Part shown: piece by piece, positions 1-44,286 of the stretch
Layout: the number at the start of each line of letters is the position of its first letter
Position numbering within the stretch: the first letter of the stretch is position 1
IMG/VR virus record: IMGVR_UViG_3300022904_000001
Length of the DNA: 44,286 nt
DNA from: a virus
Reading direction: 5' to 3' (one strand)
Notes under the pieces: generated by a model
Database searches by the model: none
What the model was told of the DNA's origin: nothing
The model's input: only the letters and a program-made list of their open reading frames with translations
Translations under genes and position numbers: made by a program

Positions 1-127
1 CTGCAACGGCCAGGGCGGCATCAACACCGGCAACGTCTGACCTGACCACCCAGAAGGGCCCGGAGAGGATTCCTCTCCGGGCCCTTCTGGGCATCCCCTC
101 ACGCCTTCAACGCAAGCATGCCCTCCC
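1..127. repeat. 127-bp terminal overlap, exact copy of 44160..44286 (circular contig closure)
   Basis: Read end to end; both copies are identical. The length is typical of an assembler k-mer overlap. Unique genome length is therefore 44159 bp. Confidence 0.9.
49..91. terminator. Bidirectional intrinsic-terminator-like hairpin (21-bp perfect arms)
   Basis: Arms cccagaagggcccggagagga / t / tcctctccgggcccttctggg. Lies between the convergent 44065..44199(+) gene and the 99..1916(-) gene. Same element as 44208..44250. Confidence 0.75.
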
Positions 128-1916
128 GCCAGTGGTACAGCGCGCCCATGTCATACAGCCTGGCCTCCGTCTGGCCATACGGCTGGCCATCCGGTTTGGC
201 CAGCGGCTCCGGGAAGCCGGCCAGCGTGCTGGCCCGGCGCAGAGTGGCCAACGTGATGGCCATCGGCCCGTCCTGGCCAGGCAGATTGGCCAGCGCTTCG
301 GCCAGTGTGACCGCACTGGCCAGCGCCGGCCGGGATTGGCCAGTGGCCACCGATGTCCAGGACTGGCCAAGGATCGGGCCAGTGGCCATGTCCAGGCCAG
401 AGACGATGGCCAGCGCTTCGGCCTCCGACAACCAGGGGACACGGAAGATCTCGAACTCGTCCGCTCTGGCCACTCCCCACACACCGCGCTCGCGCGACGT
501 GCAGGCCACGTAGTCCATCGTGTCCACCAACATCTTCCAGAGCTTGCGATCCCAGCGCGCGATGAAGCGGCCACCCTGGAAGCTCTCCCGGATGTCACCG
601 CCGTTGCCGCCGAAGATCGATGCGGACGCGCGCTGCGCCGCGACGATCACGTGCATCTTCAATTCGCGGCCCATGCACACGCTCTCCTGCATGGCCACGA
701 TGGCCGGCGACTGGACAGGCGGGTCCAGATCGGCCACCTCGAACGGTGCATCATCGGCCTGCGCCTGCTTGGCCGCGAGCATGATCTCTTTGCGCAGGCC
801 GCGCCAATACCTGATCAGCTTTTTGGCCTGGACGTTGGCCTCTTCGACCATGATGATCACGCGACGCTGGCCGACGAGCTCCTCCTCCGGCAGCTCGATG
901 CGTCGCTTGATCTCCTCGCCGATGGCCATCCACGTCTCATGCAGGTCGGCATCGCGGTACGCGTAGATCACTTGGTCTTTGCTGAGCTTGCCGCCACCCG
1001 CCCATCGCCAGTGCGAGAAGCGCTTCGGATCCAGGATGATTCCGCCGTCACCCTTCTCGATCCGCTGCACCATGAAGACGCGGGCAAGTACCGTCTTGCC
1101 GGTGCCCGCGGCGCCGGACATGAGGAAGTGGGGAGAGTCTTCGACCATGCTGACCTTGACGAGGTGGCCTTGCGCCTTGCGTCCGACGATCACCTCGTCA
1201 TCCGCACATTCCTCGATGGCCTTACGCAGGCTGGCGAAGGTCACCTCCCCGGGCGGCAGCGGCGCGGAGGAGAGGTCGACGCAGACGTTCGTGCCTGCCT
1301 CGCTCCACTCCCCGCGTACGGGCGCGGGGATGCCGAGCCGAGCGCCGACGTTCTCGGTGAGGGCTGCCTTGGATCGCGGATTCAGGGGCACGTGCACGGG
1401 CAGATGCACGCGCACTGTGCCTTGCGCTTCCTTGCCCCAGTTGGGAGGAAGCTCGATCGCCTCGCGGCCGGCGCGTTTGGTGTAGCGGCCACCGGTGAGC
1501 GAGAACAGCACGCGCGCCGCGGGATCGACGTACTCGCGGTTCAGCCGGCCGCGGCGCAGCAGATGAACAAATGATCTGGCAACCCACCACATCGCAATCA
1601 GCCAGGTAGCAAGAGCCCAGGCGACGGCGATCTTCCAGCCGGCCAGAGGCAGCAGGGCCAGCGGCACGGTCAGGGCAGCGTGCCGGCGCGCGAGACGCTG
1701 CCAGATCGGACCGCTCAGCGTCATGTACGGGCGAGCGCGGTAGTCGATCGTGGCGCGGTGCAGGAAGGTGGCGTTATCGCCGGGGCCGCGGAGCTGCTGG
1801 CCGGTGATGAGGTACCGGCCGAGGATGCGCAGCGGGAGCGGGACACGCGCGTGCTCGCCACGCCAGGAGATCAGTGGGGCCGAATTTTGAGGCACCTGAT
1901 CGACTCTAGCGCACAT
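99..1916 (-). CDS. FtsK/SpoIIIE-family DNA translocase, TraB-like architecture
   Basis: 605-aa ORF. N-terminal hydrophobic helices (LTVPLALLPLAGWKIAVAWALATWLIAMWWVA), Walker A GAAGTGKT, Walker B-like VIIMVEEAN, and a low-complexity C-terminal tail. Confidence 0.85.
   Translation of the reverse strand: MCARVDQVPQNSAPLISWRGEHARVPLPLRILGRYLITGQQLRGPGDNATFLHRATIDYRARPYMTLSGPIWQRLARRHAALTVPLALLPLAGWKIAVAWALATWLIAMWWVARSFVHLLRRGRLNREYVDPAARVLFSLTGGRYTKRAGREAIELPPNWGKEAQGTVRVHLPVHVPLNPRSKAALTENVGARLGIPAPVRGEWSEAGTNVCVDLSSAPLPPGEVTFASLRKAIEECADDEVIVGRKAQGHLVKVSMVEDSPHFLMSGAAGTGKTVLARVFMVQRIEKGDGGIILDPKRFSHWRWAGGGKLSKDQVIYAYRDADLHETWMAIGEEIKRRIELPEEELVGQRRVIIMVEEANVQAKKLIRYWRGLRKEIMLAAKQAQADDAPFEVADLDPPVQSPAIVAMQESVCMGRELKMHVIVAAQRASASIFGGNGGDIRESFQGGRFIARWDRKLWKMLVDTMDYVACTSRERGVWGVARADEFEIFRVPWLSEAEALAIVSGLDMATGPILGQSWTSVATGQSRPALASAVTLAEALANLPGQDGPMAITLATLRRASTLAGFPEPLAKPDGQPYGQTEARLYDMGALYHWREGMLALKA
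172..472. repeat. TGGCCA hexamer array 1 (14 copies in 301 bp) inside the 3' end of the translocase gene
   Basis: Copies start at 172,184,197,245,257,274,287,317,337,344,364,383,407,467. There are also several GGCCAG near-copies. The 17-mer tggccagcgcttcggcc is duplicated at 287 and 407. Confidence 0.9.
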
Positions 1917-2437: not shown

Positions 2438-2908
2438 GTGCTCGCCAAGTACAAGCGGCGCAAGCCGGGTGTCTACCTCTACCGGACGTTCCGGCACATG
2501 CGACCGGGCACGGAGTGGGGATACGCCGGCAAGAGCCGCAACCTGGACGCACGAGCGCTCTGCCACGCCGGCGCCTGCCACCACGTGGACTGCCTTGAGA
2601 AGTCCTGGCATGACCTGATCGTCTTCCGCTGGACACTGCGACTCCCGTGGTGGCTCGGCTGGGACTGGATCACGCTGTCGATCGAGACGCTGCTCATCCT
2701 GGTCACAGGCCCTCGCTACAACTGGCAGAAGAATCCGTGGTCGCACAAGGTCGGCCCGCGCGGCCAGGCGCAGCAGCGCGCGCAGCGTGACCTCTACCCG
2801 CGCGTGCAGAGCGCCTACCGCAAGACGACGCTCGCCTACAACCTGATCAGCATGCTCGGAATCATCATCATTTTGGTAGGAATTGGAGGCTACGTATGGA
2901 CGCGGTGA
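2438..2908 (+). CDS. GIY-YIG-like nuclease domain protein with C-terminal transmembrane helix
   Basis: GTG start. GVYLYR..(13)..GYAGKSRNLDAR, then SIETLLILVTGPRYNWQKN, which resembles the UvrC-type E..LI....P.YN motif. C-terminal hydrophobic segment LISMLGIIIILVGIGGYVW. Confidence 0.5.
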   Translation: MLAKYKRRKPGVYLYRTFRHMRPGTEWGYAGKSRNLDARALCHAGACHHVDCLEKSWHDLIVFRWTLRLPWWLGWDWITLSIETLLILVTGPRYNWQKNPWSHKVGPRGQAQQRAQRDLYPRVQSAYRKTTLAYNLISMLGIIIILVGIGGYVWTR

Positions 2909-3129
2909 AAGTGATCGACGAGGGATACACCGTCTCGGGCCTGCCGGACGGAGACACGGTCCGCGTCCGGTGGACGATCTCCGCGACGTCATACACGGAG
3001 ATCGTCATCACGGAGCATCACGGCCAGACACGCTCCTTCGACCTCGACGGCTTCAGGGATTATGTCGACGGTCTGAAGGTCGCACTCGACTACGCCGAAA
3101 ATACGCAGGGAAGGAACGCCAGGGCATGA
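2896..3129 (+). CDS. hypothetical protein (77 aa)
   Basis: ORF track. GGAGG sits 6 nt upstream of the ATG. Confidence 0.6.
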   Translation: MDAVKVIDEGYTVSGLPDGDTVRVRWTISATSYTEIVITEHHGQTRSFDLDGFRDYVDGLKVALDYAENTQGRNARA

Positions 3130-3611
3130 GCGCCCCCGACAAGACGTTGGTCATGCGCCCCGGCGCGCTCGTGGTCCGCACGCCGGCCGCGGCGCCCGCC
3201 CGGCCCACCCGCGTCTACAGCGCCGGCTACCACCAGAAGCACGTACTCATGGCGGACATCGCGCGCATGGAGCAGGCAGGCGAGATCGAGCGCCTGCGCC
3301 GCAAGCCGCTCTGGAATCAGGACGTTCAGCTCTGGGAGATCCCCGTGCGCGTCCTGCGCGAGCCGCGCAGGCGGATGTCCGCGCGCCGCAAGGCGGCCAT
3401 CATCGCCGGCATCGTGGTCGCGTTCCTGGCCGGCATGTTCGCGGCCGGCTGGTGGCTGCTTACCGCGCTCAACACGGCAGCGTTCCTGACCTTCGCCGGC
3501 GCCGTGCTCGCCGGCCTCGTGCTCCTGATGCTTGCCGGCCGGCGTTCAAGCGGGGGTGGAACGGTGACGGCGACCGCGGTAGCCGTGGCGTCGGTGACGG
3601 TGCGCCGATGA
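3126..3611 (+). CDS. membrane protein (161 aa), 2-3 C-terminal TM helices
   Basis: ATGA overlap with the upstream stop. Hydrophobic segments IIAGIVVAFLAGMFAAGWWLL and FLTFAGAVLAGLVLLMLAG. Confidence 0.6.
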   Translation: MSAPDKTLVMRPGALVVRTPAAAPARPTRVYSAGYHQKHVLMADIARMEQAGEIERLRRKPLWNQDVQLWEIPVRVLREPRRRMSARRKAAIIAGIVVAFLAGMFAAGWWLLTALNTAAFLTFAGAVLAGLVLLMLAGRRSSGGGTVTATAVAVASVTVRR

Positions 3612-3955: not shown

Positions 3956-4281
3956 CTCTCGTAACAGCGATACGTCACGGCCAGATCATGCCATGCCTTG
4001 GCCGCTGCTTTGCCGACCTCGCTCTCGGCCTCACTGAAGACGCGCTCCTGCGCCAGGAACACGCCGCACAGCCCGCGCCGATTAACCTCTGCCAACTGCT
4101 GCGCCTTTACGTCGGCCTCCGCCTGCGCTCGCCTGTCGTTCTCGATCGCGTTCTGCGTGAGGTTGAGGTTGACCACCACGGACAGTGCCGCGCTGGCCGC
4201 GGTGAGACCGACCACCACTACCCAGGAGTACCAGCCGGGGTGACCGTGCTCGCGAAACCATCGCTTCAGCGGCACAGTCAC
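3952..4281 (-). CDS. membrane-anchored protein (109 aa), lysis cassette
   Basis: N-terminal TM segment (WYSWVVVVGLTAASAALSVVV), then a charged helical region. ATGA overlaps on both sides. Confidence 0.55.
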   Translation of the reverse strand: MTVPLKRWFREHGHPGWYSWVVVVGLTAASAALSVVVNLNLTQNAIENDRRAQAEADVKAQQLAEVNRRGLCGVFLAQERVFSEAESEVGKAAAKAWHDLAVTYRCYER

Positions 4282-4559
4282 TCAGCTCCCGAGGATGCGC
4301 CAGGCGATGATTCCGATGACGCCGGCAAGGGAGCCTCCGGCAGCGATGCGGCCGTAGAGGCTGCTCCGCCGGAGCGCGCCTGCCAGAGCTGCAACAGGCC
4401 GGGGGCGCCGATAAGTATTCCCGCCACGTACAGCGCCGTGTCGTTCGGATGGGGTGGCGGATCGAAGAACACGCCCGCCTGGCGGAACATGATCAGCCAC
4501 CCTCCCACCCATGCCACCGTGTCGCGCAGAAGCGTGGGCAGTCCAGGTCGCATGGTCAC
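4278..4559 (-). CDS. membrane protein (93 aa), lysis cassette
   Basis: Two hydrophobic segments. Follows the amidase gene. Confidence 0.5.
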   Translation of the reverse strand: MTMRPGLPTLLRDTVAWVGGWLIMFRQAGVFFDPPPHPNDTALYVAGILIGAPGLLQLWQARSGGAASTAASLPEAPLPASSESSPGASSGAE

Positions 4560-4603
4560 TCATGATCCACCTTACGGGGGAGAGGAAGTATCGGATCAGC
4601 AGC

Positions 4604-5473
4604 TCAGGAAGTCGGGTCTACCGGCTGGAGTTCCTTCAGCTCAGCCAGCAACTCCGCCGCCCGGGCGTCGATCTGCGCGGCCAGGATCTCGCGATCGTTA
4701 TCGTCCATCTGGACGTTCGCGAGGATCTTCTCTGCGGTGGCCTGCGTCTTCGCGACCGCGGCCAGAATCTGATTGCGGCGCGCGTCGGTGTACTGGATCC
4801 AGGTCTCCCACGGAAGGGAGCGCTCAGGATCGGCAGCGTCCTTGATCCTGCGAGCCATGAGCTGCTTGACCACCTCAGCAGCAACCTCGGAAGCGTCCAT
4901 GTCGTCGTCCTTGTCGTCGATGAAGCCCGCTTCCTTGCTCACCAAGGCAATGAAGCGGGACCACGGGAAAGACTTCCCGGGGTCGGTGTGCGTGCCGCCG
5001 TCCTGCGGGAACGCTTGCGTGATGTCCGCGTGACCGCAGAAGCCCTTCACGCCGGCAGCGACCTGCGCGGCGCTGAGCTTGCGGATCGGAATGTTCCACT
5101 TCCGCGCGTCCCGCGCTGCCTGCCTGGCCGCCTGCCGCAGAAGCGCGGCGTGGTACTCGTCGTCCCAGGTGCCGGCGCGCTTGACGGTAGTGCACAGCTC
5201 ATGGTGGATGCCGCGCTTGTTGCCCTGCGCGCGGGCGGTGTGCGCCTGATCCGCGGTGTGCACGCACTGAACAGTGGAGTTCGAGTCATGGAAGTAGTGC
5301 GCGCTCGTGCCGTCGGTGCGGCGCGCGTCGTACGCGGCGCCGTCTTCCGCGGATTCCGGCCGCGCGCTGCCCTCGGTCGTGTGGATGACCACCAGTTGGA
5401 CGGCGCTTCGGTTGGCGTTCGTCCAGGACTTCGGCGGGATCCAGAGGAGGTCCGGGTACTCGATGGACTTCAC
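4604..5473 (-). CDS. N-acetylmuramoyl-L-alanine amidase (amidase_2/PGRP-type) endolysin
   Basis: VVIHTTEG...SAHYF...GIHHE...CGHADI...THTDPG motifs, typical of the zinc amidase_2 fold. Position is after the tail genes. Confidence 0.8.
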   Translation of the reverse strand: MKSIEYPDLLWIPPKSWTNANRSAVQLVVIHTTEGSARPESAEDGAAYDARRTDGTSAHYFHDSNSTVQCVHTADQAHTARAQGNKRGIHHELCTTVKRAGTWDDEYHAALLRQAARQAARDARKWNIPIRKLSAAQVAAGVKGFCGHADITQAFPQDGGTHTDPGKSFPWSRFIALVSKEAGFIDDKDDDMDASEVAAEVVKQLMARRIKDAADPERSLPWETWIQYTDARRNQILAAVAKTQATAEKILANVQMDDNDREILAAQIDARAAELLAELKELQPVDPTS

Positions 5474-6127: not shown

Positions 6128-8946
6128 CAGGGCCTCGCTCTCATGCCCCATCGGGCGGGTAGGAATATCTGGATCGGCTCGCCGGCGTCGAGCGACTTCA
6201 CGATCCCGTTCACGCTGCGCGTGACCGTGGCCGTCTGGTCATACGGGCCGGATCCGCTCACCGAGCCCATGCTGGTCACGGTGATCAGCTCACCGGCGAT
6301 GAGCACTGAGTACGGCTCGGCCGTGGTGCTCCAATGCTCCCGGACGTCCGAGGAGGAGAAGGTCAGGGGGGTGGCCGTCGAGTTGACACCGGTTTTCAGT
6401 GTCGTATATTTCGCGCCGTAACGCCGTGCAGACAGCCCGTAGACGCCGGTGAGGTAAGGCCCGTATGGCGTCAGGTTGAAGTCGATCGTGCGCGTGATGT
6501 TGGAGATCATCTCCGTGTAGCCGCGCACGATCTCCGTCGTCACCGTCGGCCCCCCGGCGTACACCGGCAGGTTCGACAGGATGAACGGCCGGCCGAGATC
6601 CAGCCAGGCAGCATCGTCGACGGTCACCTCGGAGCGGTGCAGTTCGAGCGTGGCTACCGAGAACCGGAGTTCGTCCCACGTCCCCAGGAGCACCTCGCGC
6701 TGTGCAAGAGGGATGAGTTGTCTATCCTCGCTCGCGTTGCGCGGGATGGAGACGTCGAACAGGCCAACGCCGTCGGGATCGTCCTCCCTCGGGTTGACGT
6801 TGTTCGGGCCTTCCTCCTTGACCCATCGGCCGAAGGAGCCGTCAGCGCGCGTGATCGTCACGTCGTTGCGGATGTCCCGGTTCTCCCGCGGTCGCAGCGA
6901 GCCGGAGAAGACGTGAGCCGCGTAGTCCAGCGTGGGCCCGGAGCGGTTGAGCAGGGAGTAGTACGAACGGATCGCGAGACCGAGCTTGTCCCGCGGCGCG
7001 TGCAGGATGCCGCCGTCGATGTCCGCGCACTCCTGGAACAGGTCCATCGGGAACAGCAATCCCTGCGCCCCCATCGTCGGCGTCTGATCCTCACCGTCGA
7101 TGGAGTCCGGACCGATCCACCAGAACGGGATACCTAGCTCGGCGGCCAGCCGCATGGCGCGGTCGCGGGCGTTCTCGCCGACGTAGCCGTTCGTGCTCAT
7201 GGTGAAGTCGGCGCCGGTGAATTCGAGATCTTCGCGCGAGAGCGCGACGTGGGCGATCTGGAGGTCGCTCTTGCCGGTGAACGGCCAGGAGATCCAGGAC
7301 GAAGCGCGCCCGGACGTGCCGGCGAACGATCCCGTCATGCCGTACAGTACCGGCGCGCCGACCGCGTACCAGCCCCACTCGAAGTTGACGTTTTGGTCCA
7401 TGAGTAGCCGCATGGCGATCCACTGATTCGGCTCGGCGCCGGCCCCGAACGATGCGTTCGAGAAGAACAGCGAGGTGCCGTTACGGTCGAACAGCTCCAT
7501 GGAGTAGTTCGTGGTGGAGACGTTGAAGGTCGCCTTGTAGACGGTGCCGCCCCGGTAGTAGATGGAGAAGATCTCCCGGTTGGCCGCGGGGATGGCATCG
7601 AACTTGAAGTAGAACAGCGCGAAACTCTGCGCGCTCACCGCGCCGGTCGTGACGGCCACGCCGGACGCGTACCCGTCATCGTCGGTGAAGCCGAGCGCGC
7701 CGGCCGAGCCGGGCAGATCAGGCGCGGTGCCGAACGCCGCGGACTTCATGTAGCCGGTCTTGCCGACATAGGCACCGATCGTGGTGGCGCCCAGGTCGCT
7801 CTCCATCGGCCAGTACCCATCCATGGCATACCGGGTGAGGTTGCGATAGATCGGCGAGCGCAGCGGCTTCTGGCCGGACATCAGGCGCTCAGCCACCGAG
7901 GATGCGCTGATGTTGACTACGACGTCCGTGCCGGTCGTGTCCCACTCTGAGGGAAACTCGGGGATTTCACCATGAAACCGGTAGTCCGCGTCGGTGATCT
8001 CCGCGCTCGCCGCGAGGGCCCAGGTATTCGGCGAGGCGAGGCCGTCGGACCAGGAGGTGGTACCGGACGCCTGCGCCGTCGCGTCCATCCGTGCGACCAC
8101 CGTGCCGGCGATGCCGTTGCGCAGCTCGAACGAATAGATCCTGCCCGTGAACGGATCGGCGTTGAAGGAGGTGGCGAAGATGCCACGACCTCCGGCGTTA
8201 CCGGTCGTGCCGACTTCAAGCGGCGCGTTCGAGGCGAAGATGCTGGTGGTACCGGTGGTGCCGGTGATCGTGGAGCCGAGCTGCGTCCAGGTGCCGTTGA
8301 TCGAGGTGGACGTGTAGAAGGTGAGCGCGTACTGGCCGGCGCCGTTGTTGACGTCCAGCGTTGCGCGGAACGCCTGCCGGCCGCGGCCGGCGATGGTGGC
8401 TGTACTGCGCTGCACGATGCGGCCGCTCACTGCGCCGTTCGTGGACCAGATGAGCATCAGGTAGCCGTGCTGGTCCGTGCAGAAGGCCCATGCTCGCTGA
8501 TCCACGCTGATGACGTACTTGCCGGCCAGGACGTGGCCGAGCCGGCCGTACCAGTCGTCCGCCTCAGCGTCGATGCGGATATCGATGTCACCGGTGATAT
8601 CGAGGCTGGCCTTGTCCGCGGTCCACGCGCGGGCCCCGTCGTAGTCGCGGGTGCCCGGTGTGTTCGTATCGGTGAGCCGCAGGCTGGTCCCGGCCTGCGT
8701 GATCGAACACCGGTATGGCGTGTAGAGGCCAAGGAGGCGGTAGTACGGGGACAGCGGGTTGCGGTTGGAGTAGCGGCCGTCCAGGTTGTCCAGGTAGAAG
8801 GAGGCGACGTCAGAGGCGATGTTCGCCTGCTCCGCCGAGGAGCCGCGGGTGATCCGGACGTCGCGACCGAGGCCACGCGTGTCGGAGGTGACCGCGGTCC
8901 ATGCACCATCGATCTTGATCTCTTGCTTGATCGCCTGAAGCGCCAT
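6127..8946 (-). CDS. large minor tail / tail-tip protein (939 aa)
   Basis: Directly follows the tape measure gene (TGATG overlap). Its size and position match a fused distal-tail/tip protein. The upstream 62 codons of the ORF track overlap the tape measure gene. Confidence 0.75.
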   Translation of the reverse strand: MALQAIKQEIKIDGAWTAVTSDTRGLGRDVRITRGSSAEQANIASDVASFYLDNLDGRYSNRNPLSPYYRLLGLYTPYRCSITQAGTSLRLTDTNTPGTRDYDGARAWTADKASLDITGDIDIRIDAEADDWYGRLGHVLAGKYVISVDQRAWAFCTDQHGYLMLIWSTNGAVSGRIVQRSTATIAGRGRQAFRATLDVNNGAGQYALTFYTSTSINGTWTQLGSTITGTTGTTSIFASNAPLEVGTTGNAGGRGIFATSFNADPFTGRIYSFELRNGIAGTVVARMDATAQASGTTSWSDGLASPNTWALAASAEITDADYRFHGEIPEFPSEWDTTGTDVVVNISASSVAERLMSGQKPLRSPIYRNLTRYAMDGYWPMESDLGATTIGAYVGKTGYMKSAAFGTAPDLPGSAGALGFTDDDGYASGVAVTTGAVSAQSFALFYFKFDAIPAANREIFSIYYRGGTVYKATFNVSTTNYSMELFDRNGTSLFFSNASFGAGAEPNQWIAMRLLMDQNVNFEWGWYAVGAPVLYGMTGSFAGTSGRASSWISWPFTGKSDLQIAHVALSREDLEFTGADFTMSTNGYVGENARDRAMRLAAELGIPFWWIGPDSIDGEDQTPTMGAQGLLFPMDLFQECADIDGGILHAPRDKLGLAIRSYYSLLNRSGPTLDYAAHVFSGSLRPRENRDIRNDVTITRADGSFGRWVKEEGPNNVNPREDDPDGVGLFDVSIPRNASEDRQLIPLAQREVLLGTWDELRFSVATLELHRSEVTVDDAAWLDLGRPFILSNLPVYAGGPTVTTEIVRGYTEMISNITRTIDFNLTPYGPYLTGVYGLSARRYGAKYTTLKTGVNSTATPLTFSSSDVREHWSTTAEPYSVLIAGELITVTSMGSVSGSGPYDQTATVTRSVNGIVKSLDAGEPIQIFLPARWGMRARP

Positions 8947-15011: not shown

Positions 15012-15302
15012 ATGACTCAGCCGTTGAAGCCGTGCGGCACCGATGCCGCCTACAAGCGCCACCTCAAACGCCGCGAGCGCGCCTGCACACCGTGCCGGCG
15101 AGCGCATGCGCTCGCGACAGCTCTACAGAAGGATCCGGACTGGAAGCCGAAGGAGATCCCCGCCTGCGGCACCGTCCGCGCCTACAAGCGCCATCTGCGC
15201 CACGGCGAGGTGACCGATCGAGAGTGCTGCGACGCGTGGGCCGAGGACAAGCGAGACCGGGACCGCGAGCGTCGCCGGCAGCGCCGCCTTCAGACGGTGT
15301 GA
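15012..15302 (+). CDS. tandem Cys-motif (zinc-ribbon-like) basic protein, 96 aa, antisense to the late operon
   Basis: Two repeats: CGT.AAYKRHLKRRERACTPC and CGTVRAYKRHLRHGEVTDRECC. Arg-rich tail. The 3' end overlaps 15290..16228 convergently by 13 nt. Confidence 0.65.
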   Translation: MTQPLKPCGTDAAYKRHLKRRERACTPCRRAHALATALQKDPDWKPKEIPACGTVRAYKRHLRHGEVTDRECCDAWAEDKRDRDRERRRQRRLQTV

Positions 15303-16228
15303 CCACCGAACTTGCAATGCCGGCCGCGAGGTGTCAGCTCAAGCGGCCAGCCGTGCTCCGGGCAGTCCAGCGGGTTGGCCTCACGCGCGAGGTTGCGCGC
15401 GTGGTCGGCGCGTGCCTCGTGAACGATGCCGCGCAGGGACTCCCACGATCCGCCCGTGTCCGGCGGTGCGTAGGTCGCGCCGCCCAGCGTGAGCGGGCCG
15501 AGCGCGATCGGGACAGCCAGACCGCCCGCGGTGATCGCGAGGTCGTCCGGAGGGCCCGCCAGCGTGGGAGCGCCGAGCGCGATCGGGAGGCTGAGGCTAC
15601 CAATACTCAGCGCCAGGGTCTGGCTGAGCGTGGGAGCGCCGAGTGCGATCGGAACAGCGAGTCCACCAGTACTCAGCGCCAGAGTCTGACTGAGTACTGG
15701 TCCGCCGAGCGCGATCGGAACGGCGAGCCCGCCGGCGGAAATGCTCCCGCCGCCCACCTCGTCGGCCTCGAAGACCACATCGGCGAAATACGAGGCTCCG
15801 TTGCCGGACTCGATCGTGGCGAACTGGTTGGACACGGGCGTGATGGCAAGCCATCCGTTGTCCGTCCCGGCGGTGAGGTTGCCCGATATCTTCGGCCAGG
15901 GGTAACTCGTGGTGGCCACGTAGCGTTCAGGGATGAAGATCGAGACCTGATATTCGACGCCACCGGTGACCGCCACGCTGAGCGCGTTGGAGACCTGCCA
16001 ACCGGAACTCGTCACGGGGAACGAGGCACTACCCAATGACGCCTGGTCCGAGACACGGTAGATGCCCACCGTGTAGCCGGATCCCGCGGCGTCAGGAAAG
16101 AAGTACCTGCCGGCCGTGATGGTGCCGGAGACGGCGGGCGTGAAGTTCGTGGCAAGACAGTACGTCGCCGAGTCGGTGAGGTTGTTCAGTGCCGGCGTCT
16201 CGGTGCCGAAGAGGTTTTCGGCGACCAT
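15290..16228 (-). CDS. DUF4082-like N-terminal domain protein with internal 21-aa tandem repeats (312 aa)
   Basis: N-terminus ..ATNFTPAVSGTITAGRYFFP..GYTVGIYRV..SGWQV..VEYQVS. Repeats are S.GGLAVPIALG.P.LSQTLAL. C-terminus CPEHGWPL...RHCKFGGH. Confidence 0.6.
   Translation of the reverse strand: MVAENLFGTETPALNNLTDSATYCLATNFTPAVSGTITAGRYFFPDAAGSGYTVGIYRVSDQASLGSASFPVTSSGWQVSNALSVAVTGGVEYQVSIFIPERYVATTSYPWPKISGNLTAGTDNGWLAITPVSNQFATIESGNGASYFADVVFEADEVGGGSISAGGLAVPIALGGPVLSQTLALSTGGLAVPIALGAPTLSQTLALSIGSLSLPIALGAPTLAGPPDDLAITAGGLAVPIALGPLTLGGATYAPPDTGGSWESLRGIVHEARADHARNLAREANPLDCPEHGWPLELTPRGRHCKFGGHTV
15479..15745. repeat. About four tandem, roughly 63-bp coding repeats
   Basis: Correspond to aa 162-250 of the 312-aa protein. 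The DNA units (..ggagcgccgagcgcgatcgg..actcagcgccag.gtctg.ctgag..) are visibly reiterated. Confidence 0.8.
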
Positions 16229-23660: not shown

Positions 23661-25028
23661 TCAACTCTTCATGAACCGCACGCGCGGGCGCGGCTGGACG
23701 TCGATCTCCATCAGCGCATAGCGCATCTGGTCCATGCCATCGTCCTCGTCCTTCATGGGCTCGTCCTTGCCCTTGTCGTTCCAGACGTAGCCGGGAATCT
23801 CCGCGACCGTGGAGGTCGGCTTCTTGGCTTCCTCCGCTTCGAGGTCGCGCACGATCCCGGCGTCGCGGAAGAACTTCAGGCGCGCACGGCCGCGGGCGTC
23901 GGGGCGGAAGCGTGAGGCTGTGACCTGAAGGCCATCCTTCACGCTCTTGTTCGCCGGCCGGGTGGGCTGGCCGATGTGGCGTTCAAGTGTGGCCCGGTCC
24001 TCAGCATCGTGATCGCAGATGATGATGGATGGGCGCTTGGCCTGCCAGCCGGTGACCGGCTCGCCATCGTACGGCAGGATGTGCCCGGTCTCCGGATCGA
24101 CCGGCCCCCAGCCGCAATGCGCACGGATCATGCGCGCGTGGTCCTCCACGAGGACTTTCGTCTTGTGGATCTCGTTGACCAGGATCGCCTCACCGTCTGG
24201 GGCGACCGCCCAATCTCCCCAGACGAACGGGTGCACGAATCCGAAGTCCACACTCCAGATGCGGCGCCAGTCCTCGGGGATCTCGAACCGGTCGACCACG
24301 TGCAGCGCCGGGTTGAAGTCTTCGTAGATGACACCTTCGGCTGCTGCCCAGATGCCCTTGCGCAGGCGCAGGTAGCGCACGCCGGTGAGCGAGTCGAGCT
24401 TCTCCATGTAGTTGCGGCCGGCCTCGGTCGCGGTGCCGTCCTCGTTGAAATACCGCGGGTTGTCCTCGTGACGCGAGTGCAGCATGAGCGTCTTGCCAGC
24501 CTCGCAGCGCAGCTTCAGCCAGTGCGTGGGCTCCTGCGGATTGCAGTCCATGATGATCTGCGAGAAGGAGATGGCGCCGTTGCGCAGGCGGGACACGCAA
24601 GCTTCGAGATCCTCGACCTCGATCTCAGTGGCTTCCTGGATGTAGATCACGTCGTACTCGGTGGACATGACCTTCATCGGGTTGTCCATGCCGCCGATGG
24701 CGATGCGTGAACCGTTCGAGTAGCGGTAGCTCGGAGGCTCGCGGCGGTTGCCGCCGAAGAAGCTGACGGTGCCGTCCAGCAGCGCCTGCACGGCTACGTG
24801 CTTCTCGTACGTCTCGATGCCTGAGGTGGTGAGCGAGACGGCGGTCTTGCGCAGCATGAGCGCGCGCACGTTGGGCGTGAGCAGGCAGATGTAGTGCAGC
24901 TTCTCCAGCGCGGCGCGGCTCTTGCCGGTGCCGGCCGGGCCGGCGAGCAGTACTTCACCCCCGCGGTACCGCATGGCTTCTGCTGCGGCGCCCCGGGGGC
25001 GGAAGTGGTGGACGAGGGCGGTGGTCAC
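23661..25028 (-). CDS. terminase large subunit (455 aa)
   Basis: Walker A GPAGTGKS. Contains ..VIYIQEATE... A C-terminal nuclease-type region follows. GTG start overlaps the upstream stop (GTGA). Confidence 0.85.
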   Translation of the reverse strand: MTTALVHHFRPRGAAAEAMRYRGGEVLLAGPAGTGKSRAALEKLHYICLLTPNVRALMLRKTAVSLTTSGIETYEKHVAVQALLDGTVSFFGGNRREPPSYRYSNGSRIAIGGMDNPMKVMSTEYDVIYIQEATEIEVEDLEACVSRLRNGAISFSQIIMDCNPQEPTHWLKLRCEAGKTLMLHSRHEDNPRYFNEDGTATEAGRNYMEKLDSLTGVRYLRLRKGIWAAAEGVIYEDFNPALHVVDRFEIPEDWRRIWSVDFGFVHPFVWGDWAVAPDGEAILVNEIHKTKVLVEDHARMIRAHCGWGPVDPETGHILPYDGEPVTGWQAKRPSIIICDHDAEDRATLERHIGQPTRPANKSVKDGLQVTASRFRPDARGRARLKFFRDAGIVRDLEAEEAKKPTSTVAEIPGYVWNDKGKDEPMKDEDDGMDQMRYALMEIDVQPRPRVRFMKS

Positions 25029-25211: not shown

Positions 25212-25718
25212 CTACTGCAAGTCCTCGGCCGAGAAACCTTCGATGCGGTACGTCGTGGTCGTGTTCATGTCGCCGGTCACCTGCAAGCGCGTCGGGAGCT
25301 GGCCCATCTCCTCGGCGGCCTGCTTGAGCACCTGAGCAGCCGCGCGCACGTCCACCTCATGCACGATGACCTCGGTCGTCTCGCCGGTATCGTCCTCGAC
25401 CGTCTCGCGGATGATCTTGCCGTTCGGTGCCACCTTCGGCGTGGGCGTACGCGCTACCTCGAACAGCTCTTCCAGTGCGCGCAGGCGTTCCGCCTTCTGC
25501 GCGATCAGGATGCCGGCGAACTCGTTCTCCGCATCGGCGCGCAGCGCGTTGATGGCCTCGGCCTCGCGCTGCTTGAACTGCGTGATCGCGCCCTCGGTGA
25601 CGCCGTAGCGCTCAGCCAGCTCCTTCTGCGTGACGTTCTCCAGCGCCAGCGCGCGGATCAGGCCATTGCGCTTCAAGCCGCCGAGCTTGCTGCGGTCGCG
25701 CTTCGTGGCCCCGCTCAT
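25212..25718 (-). CDS. terminase small subunit with N-terminal HTH (168 aa)
   Basis: NVTQKELAERYGVTEGAITQFKQRE. Position is upstream of terL. Confidence 0.7.
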   Translation of the reverse strand: MSGATKRDRSKLGGLKRNGLIRALALENVTQKELAERYGVTEGAITQFKQREAEAINALRADAENEFAGILIAQKAERLRALEELFEVARTPTPKVAPNGKIIRETVEDDTGETTEVIVHEVDVRAAAQVLKQAAEEMGQLPTRLQVTGDMNTTTTYRIEGFSAEDLQ

Positions 25719-42390: not shown

Positions 42391-42611
42391 CCACGGTCTA
42401 CTTAGCGATCATCGCCCCCGACAACCAGGGGCCGACAGTCCTCGGCGTGTTCAGCACGCTCGAAGCGGCCCAAGCAGCACACCAGACGCCCGGCGAGTGG
42501 GAGTACTCCCGCGTGTATGGCCAGTGGTGGCAGTGCAACTACCCCAGTGGTGTCGGTCACAACGACAACGAGGTCCACCCGCTCGAACTGGACGAAAGGA
42601 CGCAACCGTGA
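42387..42611 (+). CDS. hypothetical protein (74 aa)
   Basis: ORF track. GTGA overlaps on both sides. Confidence 0.55.
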   Translation: MTTVYLAIIAPDNQGPTVLGVFSTLEAAQAAHQTPGEWEYSRVYGQWWQCNYPSGVGHNDNEVHPLELDERTQP

Positions 42612-43504
42612 GCACGCTCGGATCCCTCTGGACAGGCGCCGTCGCCTACGTCTCGCTCGGCGTGGGCGCCGGCCTGTCCATGGCTGGCAACCTGGCGGAC
42701 ACCTACCGCACCCGCGGCGCCGGCCAGGTGGACGCGCTGGACAAGATCCTCGCACTCGCCTGGCCGGCGCTGGTCATCCTGGCCATCGAGATGTTCGTGT
42801 CCGAGCGGTGGAAGCGCTCGACCATGTTCCAGATCTGGCGATGGACCGGCTGTCTGGCCATCGGCTCGATGGCCATGGTGGCCAGTTGGACACACCTGCA
42901 CGACCTGTTGGCCAGTCGTGGCCAGTTGGCCGTCGTGGCCATCCTCGGACCGCTGGCCATCGACGGCATGGCCATCATGGCCACCGGCCTGATTCTGTCC
43001 ACCCGTGGGCAGTCTGGCCAACTGGCCACGGCGCCGGCCAGTGCGCCTACGGTTGGCCAAGCGCTGGCCAACAAGGACATGGCCACGCTGGCCAACTGGC
43101 CAGCGGAGGTGGCCACGCTGGACGCGATCGTGCAGGCCGAAGCGCTCATCCGTGGCCAGGAGCTGGCCAAGCAGATGGCCAGTCCGCAGGAGCCGACGTT
43201 TGAGGCTGGCCAGTTGGCCGATGACCTGGACGCGTGGGAGTGCGGGGTGGATGCGGCGATTCATGACGCCGGCCAGGAGCTGGCCAGGCAGGCGGAGGCC
43301 GTGGCCAACGGGCACCTTGCCGAGGACCCGCCTGTGGTGCCCGCGGTGCCTCCGGCGGCGGCGCTGCTGATCCAGGAGTGCTTGGCCAAGCAGGATGCCA
43401 AGAGCGCTATCGATGCGCTGGTAGCTGCTGAGCACGGTGTCTCGCCGCGGCAGGCGAGGCGGTGGCGGACGGAGGTTGCGCGCACGCTCCCTCCTCTGCT
43501 ATAG
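42608..43504 (+). CDS. DUF2637-like polytopic membrane protein with low-complexity linker and C-terminal HTH-like end (298 aa)
   Basis: GTGA start. Four hydrophobic segments. ..ASWTHLHDLLA...LGPLAIDGMAIMATGLIL resembles the DUF2637 S-x-x-H...PL.vDG signature. C-terminus ..HGVSPRQARRWR.. Confidence 0.45.
   Translation: MSTLGSLWTGAVAYVSLGVGAGLSMAGNLADTYRTRGAGQVDALDKILALAWPALVILAIEMFVSERWKRSTMFQIWRWTGCLAIGSMAMVASWTHLHDLLASRGQLAVVAILGPLAIDGMAIMATGLILSTRGQSGQLATAPASAPTVGQALANKDMATLANWPAEVATLDAIVQAEALIRGQELAKQMASPQEPTFEAGQLADDLDAWECGVDAAIHDAGQELARQAEAVANGHLAEDPPVVPAVPPAAALLIQECLAKQDAKSAIDALVAAEHGVSPRQARRWRTEVARTLPPLL
42780..43388. repeat. TGGCCA hexamer array 2 (25 copies in 609 bp) inside the DUF2637-like gene
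   Basis: Copies start at 42780,42855,42870,42879,42909,42919,42936,42954,42969,42978,43015,43023,43054,43065,43080,43089,43097,43110,43153,43164,43176,43207,43281,43302,43383. Confidence 0.9.
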
Positions 43505-43536: not shown

Positions 43537-43719
43537 ATGGCGGACCAGAAGTACCCCCACGACCTGACGATCAGCGAGCTGCGCAGCGACCTGGAGCGGG
43601 CGCAGACGGCACTCACGGAAGCGCTCGGCGCCGGCAACCGGACCATTGCTCACAACCAAGTGAACAGCATCATCGAGATCCAGCGGATGATCGAAGACCT
43701 TAGGGGCGAGAAGGCCTGA
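43537..43719 (+). CDS. hypothetical helical protein (60 aa)
   Basis: ORF track. GGGAG RBS. Confidence 0.55.
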   Translation: MADQKYPHDLTISELRSDLERAQTALTEALGAGNRTIAHNQVNSIIEIQRMIEDLRGEKA

Positions 43720-43740: not shown

Positions 43741-43774
43741 CAAGGGGGTCCACGCTTAAGCGTGGACCCCCTTG
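43741..43774. terminator. Hairpin with 15-bp perfect arms and TTAA loop
   Basis: caagggggtccacgc-ttaa-gcgtggacccccttg. Confidence 0.7.
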
Positions 43775-43789
43775 TCGTGCCATGGTTCG

Positions 43790-43806
43790 TCTGCTATAGT
43801 AGACAC
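43790..43806 (+). promoter_or_regulatory. Conserved promoter motif, leaderless (tctgcTATAGTagacacATG)
   Basis: -10 at 43795-43800. ATG at 43807. Confidence 0.6.
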
Positions 43807-43998
43807 ATGATGAACAACGGAGACAGCGGCAGTCAGTATTCCGAGAAGGCGCTCAAGCGGCGCCAGCAGCAGGCCATCGCGCAGGACATGAAGCGGCGCG
43901 GAGGCAACCCCGTTACCGTGTCCGACCTGCGGCAGCGGCACAGCGTCGGCAACCGGCCGGGGACCGGCTTCCTGAGCACGCTCCTGCATCACGGCTAG
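43807..43998 (+). CDS. hypothetical basic protein (63 aa), leaderless
   Basis: Internal ATG (MMNNGDSGS...) of ORF 43762..43998. Confidence 0.55.
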   Translation: MMNNGDSGSQYSEKALKRRQQQAIAQDMKRRGGNPVTVSDLRQRHSVGNRPGTGFLSTLLHHG

Positions 43999-44064: not shown

Positions 44065-44199
44065 ATGCTCACCCGCTTCGTCCGCTTCGTCCTCAGCGCC
44101 TGGAAGGCCTGCGAGACCTGCAAGGGTTCCGGCCAGCACAACGGCAAGAAGTGCCCAGCCTGCAACGGCCAGGGCGGCATCAACACCGGCAACGTCTGA
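44065..44199 (+). CDS. 44-aa DnaJ-CR-type zinc-finger micro-protein (2x CxxCxGxG)
   Basis: MLTRFVRFVLSAWKACETCKGSGQHNGKKCPACNGQGGINTGNV. AGGAGG RBS. The 3' end is also present at 1..40. Confidence 0.5.
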   Translation: MLTRFVRFVLSAWKACETCKGSGQHNGKKCPACNGQGGINTGNV

Positions 44200-44286
44200 C
44201 CTGACCACCCAGAAGGGCCCGGAGAGGATTCCTCTCCGGGCCCTTCTGGGCATCCCCTCACGCCTTCAACGCAAGCATGCCCTCCC
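44160..44286. repeat. Second copy of the 127-bp closure overlap
   Basis: Identical to 1..127. Includes the terminator copy at 44208..44250. Confidence 0.9.

Follow-up and report, generated by a model that had tools for sequence, protein, structure and literature searches.

The DNA analyzed here is IMG/VR virus record IMGVR_UViG_3300022904_000001, a stretch of 44,286 nucleotides (below, the window, meaning its full length), and the element in question is a pair of dense arrays of the palindromic hexamer TGGCCA, each written into a protein-coding gene. The first array (positions 172–472), whose 14 exact copies had been counted correctly in an initial annotation made from the sequence alone, lies in the last ∼125 codons (375 bp) of gene A (99–1916, minus strand), which encodes a predicted Tra/FtsK-like membrane DNA translocase of 605 amino acids (aa). 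The second, with 25 exact copies (42780–43388), lies within gene B (42608–43504, plus strand), which encodes a predicted 298-aa membrane protein of the DUF2637 family with a long low-complexity linker and a C-terminal helix-turn-helix (HTH)-like motif, GVSPRQARRW. The first 127 bp of the window are identical to its last 127 bp (44160–44286). The assembly is therefore a circle of 44,159 bp on which the arrays are neighbors, ∼940 bp apart in convergent genes. The overlap looks like the k-mer overlap of a circularized metagenome contig rather than a biological terminal repeat.

Together the arrays hold, in ∼2 kb, 39 of the 55 TGGCCA copies of the window; dinucleotide shuffles of the window gave 12.9 ± 3.6 copies (largest value 21). 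The 16 copies found in the 42 kb outside both arrays, close to the ∼15 reported initially, are neither avoided nor enriched, ∼13 being expected in the whole window. At this outside rate ∼0.11 copies are expected in the 301 bp of the first array, and the Poisson probability of finding at least 14 is 7e-25. The spacing of the copies is dense and irregular (6–18 bp, median ∼12 bp). Neither a consensus extending past the hexamer in the copies of the window nor a clear enrichment of one-mismatch variants was detected. The GGCCAG near-copies mentioned in the initial annotation are indeed in excess (43 copies of GGCCAG/CTGGCC, against 4.1 expected), but the majority overlap TGGCCA itself. Both copies of the 17-mer tggccagcgcttcggcc that had been taken as a sign of growth by duplication are present, at 287 and 407; however, they sit in two different conserved helices of the protein, which argues against a recent duplication. 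Three simpler descriptions of the arrays were rejected: helical phasing (only a mod-3 bias was seen, which comes from the codons), a simple tandem repeat (Tandem Repeats Finder gave just local repeats of 2–3 units), and an RNA element (no Rfam match at the gathering threshold and no tRNA). The mixed orientation of the words in related phages, described below, also argues against an RNA motif. Far from the arrays, three further TGGCCA copies fall within 100 bp (13350, 13431 and 13446); with 16 background copies this is unlikely to be chance, although the effect is small.

To separate constraint on the DNA from constraint on the protein, we scored as encodable every tripeptide/codon context able to spell TGGCCA. 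All 14 such sites in the gene A tail and 25 of the 28 in the array part of gene B are realized as the hexamer, compared to 8 of 131 in the other genes. Synonymous resampling of the gene A tail with the codon usage of the genome yielded 2.3 ± 1.3 copies (maximum 7 in 2000 runs), and permutation of the gene's own codons 5.2 ± 1.4 (maximum 10), against the 14 observed; for gene B, synonymous resampling gave 4.7 ± 1.9 (maximum 11) against 25. The synonymous-codon null against which the initial annotation had proposed to measure the hexamer density thus does not reproduce it. Encodable sites are also about ten times denser in the array regions (11–13 per 100 aa) than elsewhere (1.1), so the amino-acid sequence has been bent as well.

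The hexamer is not tied to one reading frame. The two codon phases reported initially were found in the first array (nine copies as xTG-GCC-Axx and five as xxT-GGC-CAx; 11 and five in the whole of gene A), and gene B uses three. Rare codons are recruited to spell it, namely CTT, ACT, CCT, GAT and TAT ahead of GGC, as well as AGT, AAT, AAA, CAA and TTG, and in both genes the words occupy synonymous positions in conserved segments predicted to be transmembrane or winged-helix as well. Selection acts on the DNA word, overriding codon choice and even amino-acid choice.

Proteins encoded by the array genes

In the AF2 model of gene A (mean pLDDT 80), the N-terminal part contains two long helices (aa 69–92 and 94–141, together aa 69–141, encoded at 1494–1712; this and the following segments are on the minus strand) that include a predicted hydrophobic membrane anchor at approximately aa 80–115; the Kyte-Doolittle profile places the hydrophobic segment at aa 80–102. 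These helices precede a RecA-like motor of the FtsK/TcpA fold (aa ∼165–506, 399–1424) with a Walker A motif (GAAGTGKT). Foldseek matched the model to TcpA (6e-14), the FtsK motor (4e-12) and also EccC, and a sequence profile search of the PDB returned TcpA (1.9e-6) and TrwB. The gene A protein itself stays below the threshold of the Pfam FtsK_SpoIIIE model, which some of its homologs, including a plasmid homolog, pass. The Walker A motif is invariant among homologs and many other motor residues are strongly conserved. The FtsK/TraB-like translocase proposed in the initial annotation is an FtsK-family motor by fold, followed by a putative C-terminal winged-helix-like domain.

That annotation had described the tail as low-complexity. 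Instead, the motor is followed by a linker (aa ∼507–535, 312–398) that is variable in length among homologs and contains a short disordered stretch (pLDDT <50 at aa 523–533), and then by a conserved 70-aa domain (aa 536–605, 102–311) that is confidently folded in the model: the last 76 residues modeled alone reach a pLDDT of 92. The best fold matches of this domain, a candidate DNA reader, are DNA-binding domains of the MerR/CarH/excisionase type, and these matches are weak (E 0.08–4, prob 0.96, TMq 0.50–0.57). The coding sequence of the domain contains seven of the 14 words of gene A, that of the linker five, and the end of the motor the remaining two.

Gene B is placed in DUF2637 at the family level by sequence comparison. 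The protein itself, at 20.5 bits, falls short of the cut-off (22.8), but most homologs at 40–57% identity carry PF10935. It has hydrophobic segments and a conserved C-terminal GVSxRxARRW motif, for which the HTH matches are weak.

Array words in related phages and plasmids

More than 170 metagenomic homologs of gene A were found, and 56 loci of relatives (given L numbers below) were fetched for comparison. The convergent A–B pair is kept in nearly all loci that extend far enough, with a gap between the arrays of ∼110 bp to 1.4 kb, and arrays are present in dozens of these phages, in both genes of relatives down to ∼43% protein identity. The word itself changes. Most lineages use TGGCCA, but the main word is TTGGACA in L001, CGGACA in L005, L017 and L018, plain GGACA in L019 and A/TGGACA in L035, and mixed words occur in L003, L010 and L044; both genes of any one genome use the same word. 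Where the word of a relative is TGGACA or CGGACA, each array is a mixture of the two orientations, and in the GGACA class the only preference outside the core is at position −1 (T, C or A). Upon synonymous resampling the excess of the respective word survived in 13 of 13 genomes (the window and 12 relatives; z 3.7–10.5), the words other than TGGCCA having been picked after inspection of the data.

The replacement of one word by another can be followed site by site in L001, whose gene A is 79% identical to that of the window: at eight homologous positions TGGCCA faces TGGACA or TGTCCA, and the swap is accompanied by Ala-to-Asp changes in the protein, e.g. LAI to LDI and LAN to LDM. Together with the synonymous nulls and the realized encodable sites, these word-for-word exchanges show directly what the initial annotation had surmised, namely that the DNA word constrains the protein. 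Restriction avoidance was rejected as the driver of word switching, since TGGCCA is not depleted outside the arrays in loci of the GGACA class. Identification of the words as DnaA boxes or WhiA sites (GACAC) was likewise rejected, as the flanks do not fit.

Differences between close relatives indicate how the arrays change. In L059, a strain ∼99% identical to the window, gene A is unchanged at the nucleotide level, while gene B (L059 3501–4520 compared with window 42608–43504) has a linker longer by 6 and 34 aa, and the 6-aa gain adds TGGCCA words; the array-bearing linker is thus the fastest-changing part of the locus. In L001, the closest relative with a switched word, a 42-bp tandem repeat (14 aa) occurs four times in the gene B homolog (8441–8600), and each unit is packed with TGGACA/TGTCCA; duplication of units within the linker is thus one way in which an array can grow. 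In L002 a third TGGCCA array, of 11 copies in 130 bp (4296–4425), occupies the 5′ part of the translocase gene.

Homologs of gene A were also identified on plasmids of actinomycetes, 48 in all and 45 of Streptomyces origin (24–33% identity, E down to 1e-32). Identity is 27–33% in the 43 best-scoring records (E 1e-23 to 1e-32); alignment of the five weakest is limited to part of the motor. In a BLASTP comparison with a Streptomyces plasmid DUF87/FtsK protein, gene A aligned over aa 72–524 with 29% identity (E 3e-36). The plasmid proteins are annotated as DUF87, FtsK, pRL2-11 or, in pFRL6, ‘Tra protein’. The C-terminal domain of gene A, with the motif TLxxLRxAxxxDPxFP...LY..EL.RW, was found at the end of all seven plasmid proteins checked. 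In both pPR2 and pFRL6, tra is adjoined by a DUF2637 gene, the product of which passes the Pfam model in the case of pPR2; the next gene downstream in pFRL6 is annotated ‘conjugal transfer protein’.

Several of these plasmids carry arrays of their own, beside or inside tra or its DUF2637 partner, the arrangement published for TraB and its clt locus (PMC4447253, PMC3583192), with which the initial annotation had drawn an analogy. In pFRL6 (L063) there are two (2901–3500 and 5148–5266): all six locus copies of GGACCCAG are clustered in the linker-coding 3′ part of tra, and 16 of 25 copies of GCAAC between the DUF2637 gene and tra. In an 18-kb plasmid of S. goshikiensis (L061), 33 of 37 CGGAAC copies, in both orientations, fall within 4023–4671, which covers the linker of the partner gene and the spacer before tra, and the array forces an ‘EVP’ repeat in that linker. 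In pPR2 (L062) all seven copies of GACCGGAC lie at 7180–7336, within a 160-bp stretch downstream of tra. Finally, L050, a distant metagenomic element, has 13 of its 15 CGCTCC copies in the partner's linker (4085–4311). These short-word arrays, which carry no annotation in the gene tables, are candidate clt sites.

The phage replicon and the interval between the arrays

The replicon is a tailed phage, and not a conjugative plasmid or an actinomycete integrative and conjugative element (AICE): it encodes a large terminase (TerL), portal, major capsid and tail proteins, primase/helicase, a Dda-like helicase, an exonuclease, endonuclease VII and an amidase lysin, as well as an HTH protein resembling a small terminase (TerS). 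TerS (25212–25718) and TerL (23661–25028) lie ∼23 kb from the arrays, and the primase/helicase genes 15–18 kb from them. TerL is nearest to that of Thermobifida phage P1312 (50.6%) and to those of Streptomyces phages, pointing to a filamentous actinomycete as host. The cultured phages closest in TerL have their terminase gene ≤∼3 kb from the start of the genome record. The phage has no close cultured relative; the sole match is an ATPase of Dagobah (28% identity), in which anchor, winged helix and arrays are all missing. Dagobah has terminal repeats of 1.2 kb. Membership in a defense system was rejected, as the PADLOC match is at the P-loop level only, and GC skew proved uninformative as a pointer to the origin or terminus. 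Among the ∼35 proteins scanned there is no methyltransferase, and the proposal that the words are modification targets is unsupported.

Genes A and B converge on three small open reading frames (ORFs) and two G+C-rich hairpins. The ORFs, all on the plus strand, encode 60 aa (43537–43719), 78 aa (43762–43998) and 44 aa (44066–44200). The first two are also called in L059 and have no family match. The third is a zinc-ribbon ORF with CXXCXGXG twice (DnaJ-type); an identical gene in L059 (5081–5215, with a weak DnaJ_CXXCXGXG annotation) and a similar ORF in L001 (∼7913–8050) likewise lie between the arrays. A perfect G+C-rich hairpin read from the sequence between the convergent gene ends (44210–44248, equal to 51–89) is likely a bidirectional terminator, though a consensus terminator scan did not flag it. 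A second putative G+C-rich hairpin lies 3′ of the 60-aa ORF (43741–43774).

A motif resembling CTGCTATAGTAGA (an extended −10 element, TGnTATAGT) gave 19 matches at ∼13 places, compared to 0.09 expected, including 2348, 25190(−), 28249(−), 33524(−), 33579, 38865, 41669(−), 41928(−), 41982, 43496, 43791 and 44021. The four of these sites that were examined (2348, 43496, 43791 and 44021) are directly upstream of small ORFs. The motif is probably the phage's own promoter type, with three sites driving the small ORFs between the arrays. At the 5′ end of gene A, three of the 15 GTCACA copies of the genome fall within 50 bp (1916–1965), the first overlapping the ATG and the rest upstream; this trio, in a divergent intergenic region, is a possible operator of the translocase gene. 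In the tail-gene region, a 66-bp tandem repeat (15561–15727; 2.5 copies, 82% identity) lies inside an ORF at 15290–16228.

A candidate clt-like site and the alternatives

In Streptomyces plasmids, TraB and TraA bind element-specific clt repeats of 5–9 bp via a C-terminal winged helix (PMC4447253, PMC3583192). The clt locus of pWTY27 starts within the 3′ end of traA (PMC3583192, PMC4447253), and the transmembrane helices of its TraA, at 68–90 and 102–124 (PMC3583192), are close to the positions predicted in gene A. The reading we favor, with some but not great confidence, is that both TGGCCA arrays are parts of a single clt-like cis-acting site, for loading or tethering, in a tailed phage. It is based on the selection at the DNA level, the conservation of the arrays through the turnover of their words, the architecture of gene A, its Tra-like homology, the plasmid arrays and the published precedent. 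The arrays would then most likely mark the phage genome as cargo of the gene A pump.

The arrays may be pictured as a dense pad of short binding words for the membrane-anchored pair made by the phage: gene A, which would be a hexameric double-stranded DNA translocase of Tra/FtsK type with a winged-helix domain on a flexible linker, and gene B, the DUF2637 membrane protein, whose HTH-like end is carried by a long linker. Given so short a site, binding at any single one is expected to be weak, and many irregularly spaced sites would provide multivalent capture of the phage genome at the membrane, after which the gene A motor would load and pump the captured DNA. The dense irregular spacing and free orientation of the words fit a set of weak sites, each bound independently by a domain on a flexible linker. 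Transport would most plausibly proceed through a septum, or from one hyphal cell to another, in a filamentous actinomycete, as TraB/clt and the Spd proteins do for Streptomyces plasmids. The words appear to have been placed in the least constrained coding space, the linkers and 3′ ends, where they dictate the codons and some of the residues, and coupled transcription, translation and membrane insertion might bring both DNA-binding ends onto their own genes. The roles of gene A and/or gene B as readers, the translocation of DNA and its biological purpose are proposed by analogy; for the purpose (spread across septa or between cells, as against tethering or partition) we infer from the plasmid systems and the likely hyphal host.

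The likeness to the TraB/TraA–clt systems of pSVH1, pWTY27, pJV1 and pIJ101 comprises the FtsK-like motor with its predicted membrane anchor, clustered short element-specific repeats at or inside the 3′ end of tra, and partner membrane proteins (Spd); it may extend to the C-terminal winged helix, for which the fold matches are weak here. The systems differ in that the carrier here is a 44-kb tailed phage, that nearly all copies are coding and split over two convergent genes, and that no TraR/Kor-type regulator was identified here. An FtsK-fold motor is also shared with FtsK–KOPS and SpoIIIE–SRS, in which short DNA words direct loading when read by the winged helix of FtsK gamma. However, KOPS and SRS are polar 8-mers spread over the whole chromosome and oriented toward dif, whereas the present words are confined to ∼2 kb and are palindromic or of mixed orientation, and the C-terminal domain of gene A resembles the MerR/excisionase type and not FtsK gamma.

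Several observations weigh against a clt-like role. The 39 copies far exceed the 3–9 repeats of 5–9 bp in the plasmid loci, which are direct repeats, unlike the palindromic 6-mer of the window or the 5–6-mers in both orientations of its relatives. The winged-helix assignment comes from weak fold matches (E 0.08), with no Pfam match. With the word-encoding codons excluded, the TGGCCA and GGACA classes are not told apart by any column of gene A (in 21 genomes) or of gene B (in 16), in a comparison whose numbers are small and confounded by phylogeny, and near-identical putative recognition helices accompany different words; as no residue tracks the word, the reader may be another protein, or the specificity may lie elsewhere. 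Two of the seven plasmid loci (L066 and L067) have no clear array, and L064 has only a weak cluster away from tra. Moreover, no integrase, ParA/ParB-type partition protein or repressor family was found among the ∼35 proteins scanned, and no prophage, plasmid or AICE copy of the clade in 185,579 species genomes, which returned one mis-binned 1.2-kb contig only. For a tailed phage in which none of these was detected, a role in conjugation-type transfer is not obvious.

The alternative that survives best, which we consider unlikely but worth keeping in view, is a centromere or membrane tether without transport, in which gene B, gene A or another protein keeps replicating phage DNA (or else a carrier state resembling a plasmid) at the membrane or partitions it there. 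Arrays of this kind are exemplified by the heptads bound by the omega protein and by parS arrays. Words that are dense, irregular and free in orientation fit a coating or bridging role better than polar loading, the products of both array genes are predicted membrane proteins with HTH-like ends on flexible linkers, and lineage-specific words are the expected outcome of incompatibility avoidance. There is also a precedent in SpdA2 of pIJ101, whose binding site is a palindrome within the spdA2 gene itself and whose effect is on the stability of the plasmid, not on its transfer (PMC4170104). Its site, sps, resembles the present arrays in being a palindromic repeated site inside a gene of the transfer/spread region that imposes a peptide motif (SRDD/E) (PMC4170104); it differs in being a 12-bp palindrome that occurs 1–3 times and is read by the small protein of its own gene. 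Tethering is disfavored by the same negative searches, which revealed neither a ParA/ParB pair as in ParABS centromeres nor an integrase, a repressor or a copy in the form of a prophage or plasmid, and by the intact, strongly conserved FtsK-type motor of gene A, which points to active pumping.

Somewhat less probable still is that the words bind a different protein, a host factor or a phage protein encoded elsewhere, for example as origin iterons or in nucleoid organization, with genes A and B serving as tolerant coding space. The lack of covariation between word and residues in either gene would fit this, the word classes could follow host taxa, and TGTCCA forms the core of the actinobacterial DnaA box TTGTCCACA. 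Streptomyces plasmids do have iteron-type origins with repeats of 7–8 bp (PMC3583192). Yet TGGCCA is not a DnaA box, the L001 flanks (TGTCCAA[A/G]) do not fit one, the primase/helicase genes are 15–18 kb off and GC skew gives no guidance. In unrelated plasmids, furthermore, arrays with unrelated words accompany the Tra-like/DUF2637 pair and not rep genes.

We regard as very improbable that the arrays have no DNA-binding function and are a by-product of protein repeats, slippage or biased repair, or a set of modification or restriction targets. The linkers are prone to indels, as in L059 and in the fourfold 42-bp repeat of L001, and TGGCCA is a typical type II restriction site (MscI/BalI). But the words extend into conserved segments predicted to be transmembrane or winged-helix, they occupy three codon phases and two genes, and they survive the synonymous nulls in 13 genomes; Tandem Repeats Finder gives small local repeats only, TGGCCA is neither avoided nor enriched elsewhere, and there is no methyltransferase among the scanned proteins. 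Least credible of all, despite two hexamer clusters flanking a ∼940-bp central region as in P1 pac (where the hexamers, 4+3, are Dam sites adjoining the pacase genes) and the frequent use of MerR-like winged helices and repeated short sites by small terminases, is the pac-type packaging signal around a terminase cleavage site that the initial annotation had listed: TerS and TerL are ∼23 kb away, in cultured TerL relatives the terminase lies near the start of the record, Dagobah has long terminal repeats, the gap between the arrays varies from ∼110 bp to 1.4 kb, and terminase-less plasmids carry equivalent arrays beside homologous tra genes.

A related known system is the Streptomyces element pZL12, ∼90 kb in size, which is not among the 48 plasmid records matching gene A. 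According to the papers citing its description, this plasmid-phage has the life cycle of a phage and is also transferred by conjugation in a tra-dependent manner (Zhong et al. 2010, cited in PMC3583192 and PMC4487206). It differs from the present phage in having ParAB genes (PMC4487206) and a plasmid prophage state, and the passages on it in the literature surveyed describe no array of the present kind. The principle of a Tra translocase with its clt, and a Streptomyces plasmid-phage with tra genes, were already known. What is new is the carrier, a large clade of ∼44-kb tailed phages with no detected genes for lysogeny or plasmid maintenance; the site, a palindromic hexamer in 39 copies, nearly all of which fall within the coding sequence of one or the other of two genes; and the switching of the word between lineages together with amino-acid changes.

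FtsK-like genes have repeatedly been noted in Streptomyces phages without being explained (PMC13587820; bioRxiv 10.1101/2024.02.16.580700). In one phage clade such a gene can now be tied to a concrete cis element and to plasmid TraB/clt, which turns a hypothetical protein into a testable system of DNA transport or tethering. A bolder and rather doubtful extension is that a widespread, uncultured clade of soil actinophages (∼44 kb) took over a Streptomyces-type Tra protein, a DUF2637 partner and an enlarged clt, and moves naked genomes, virion-free, between hyphal compartments or neighboring cells, the lineage-specific words acting as private address labels. Should phage DNA indeed be pumped from one cell or compartment to another, a bacterial virus would have a route of spread that needs no virion, and the system would form a direct evolutionary bridge from actinomycete conjugation to phages. 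Whatever its function, the locus shows very cleanly how a DNA signal can override protein coding, with 100% of the encodable sites realized in the gene A tail, rare codons and Ala-to-Asp changes, and it offers a natural series of word switches in which the evolution of protein–DNA specificity can be studied.

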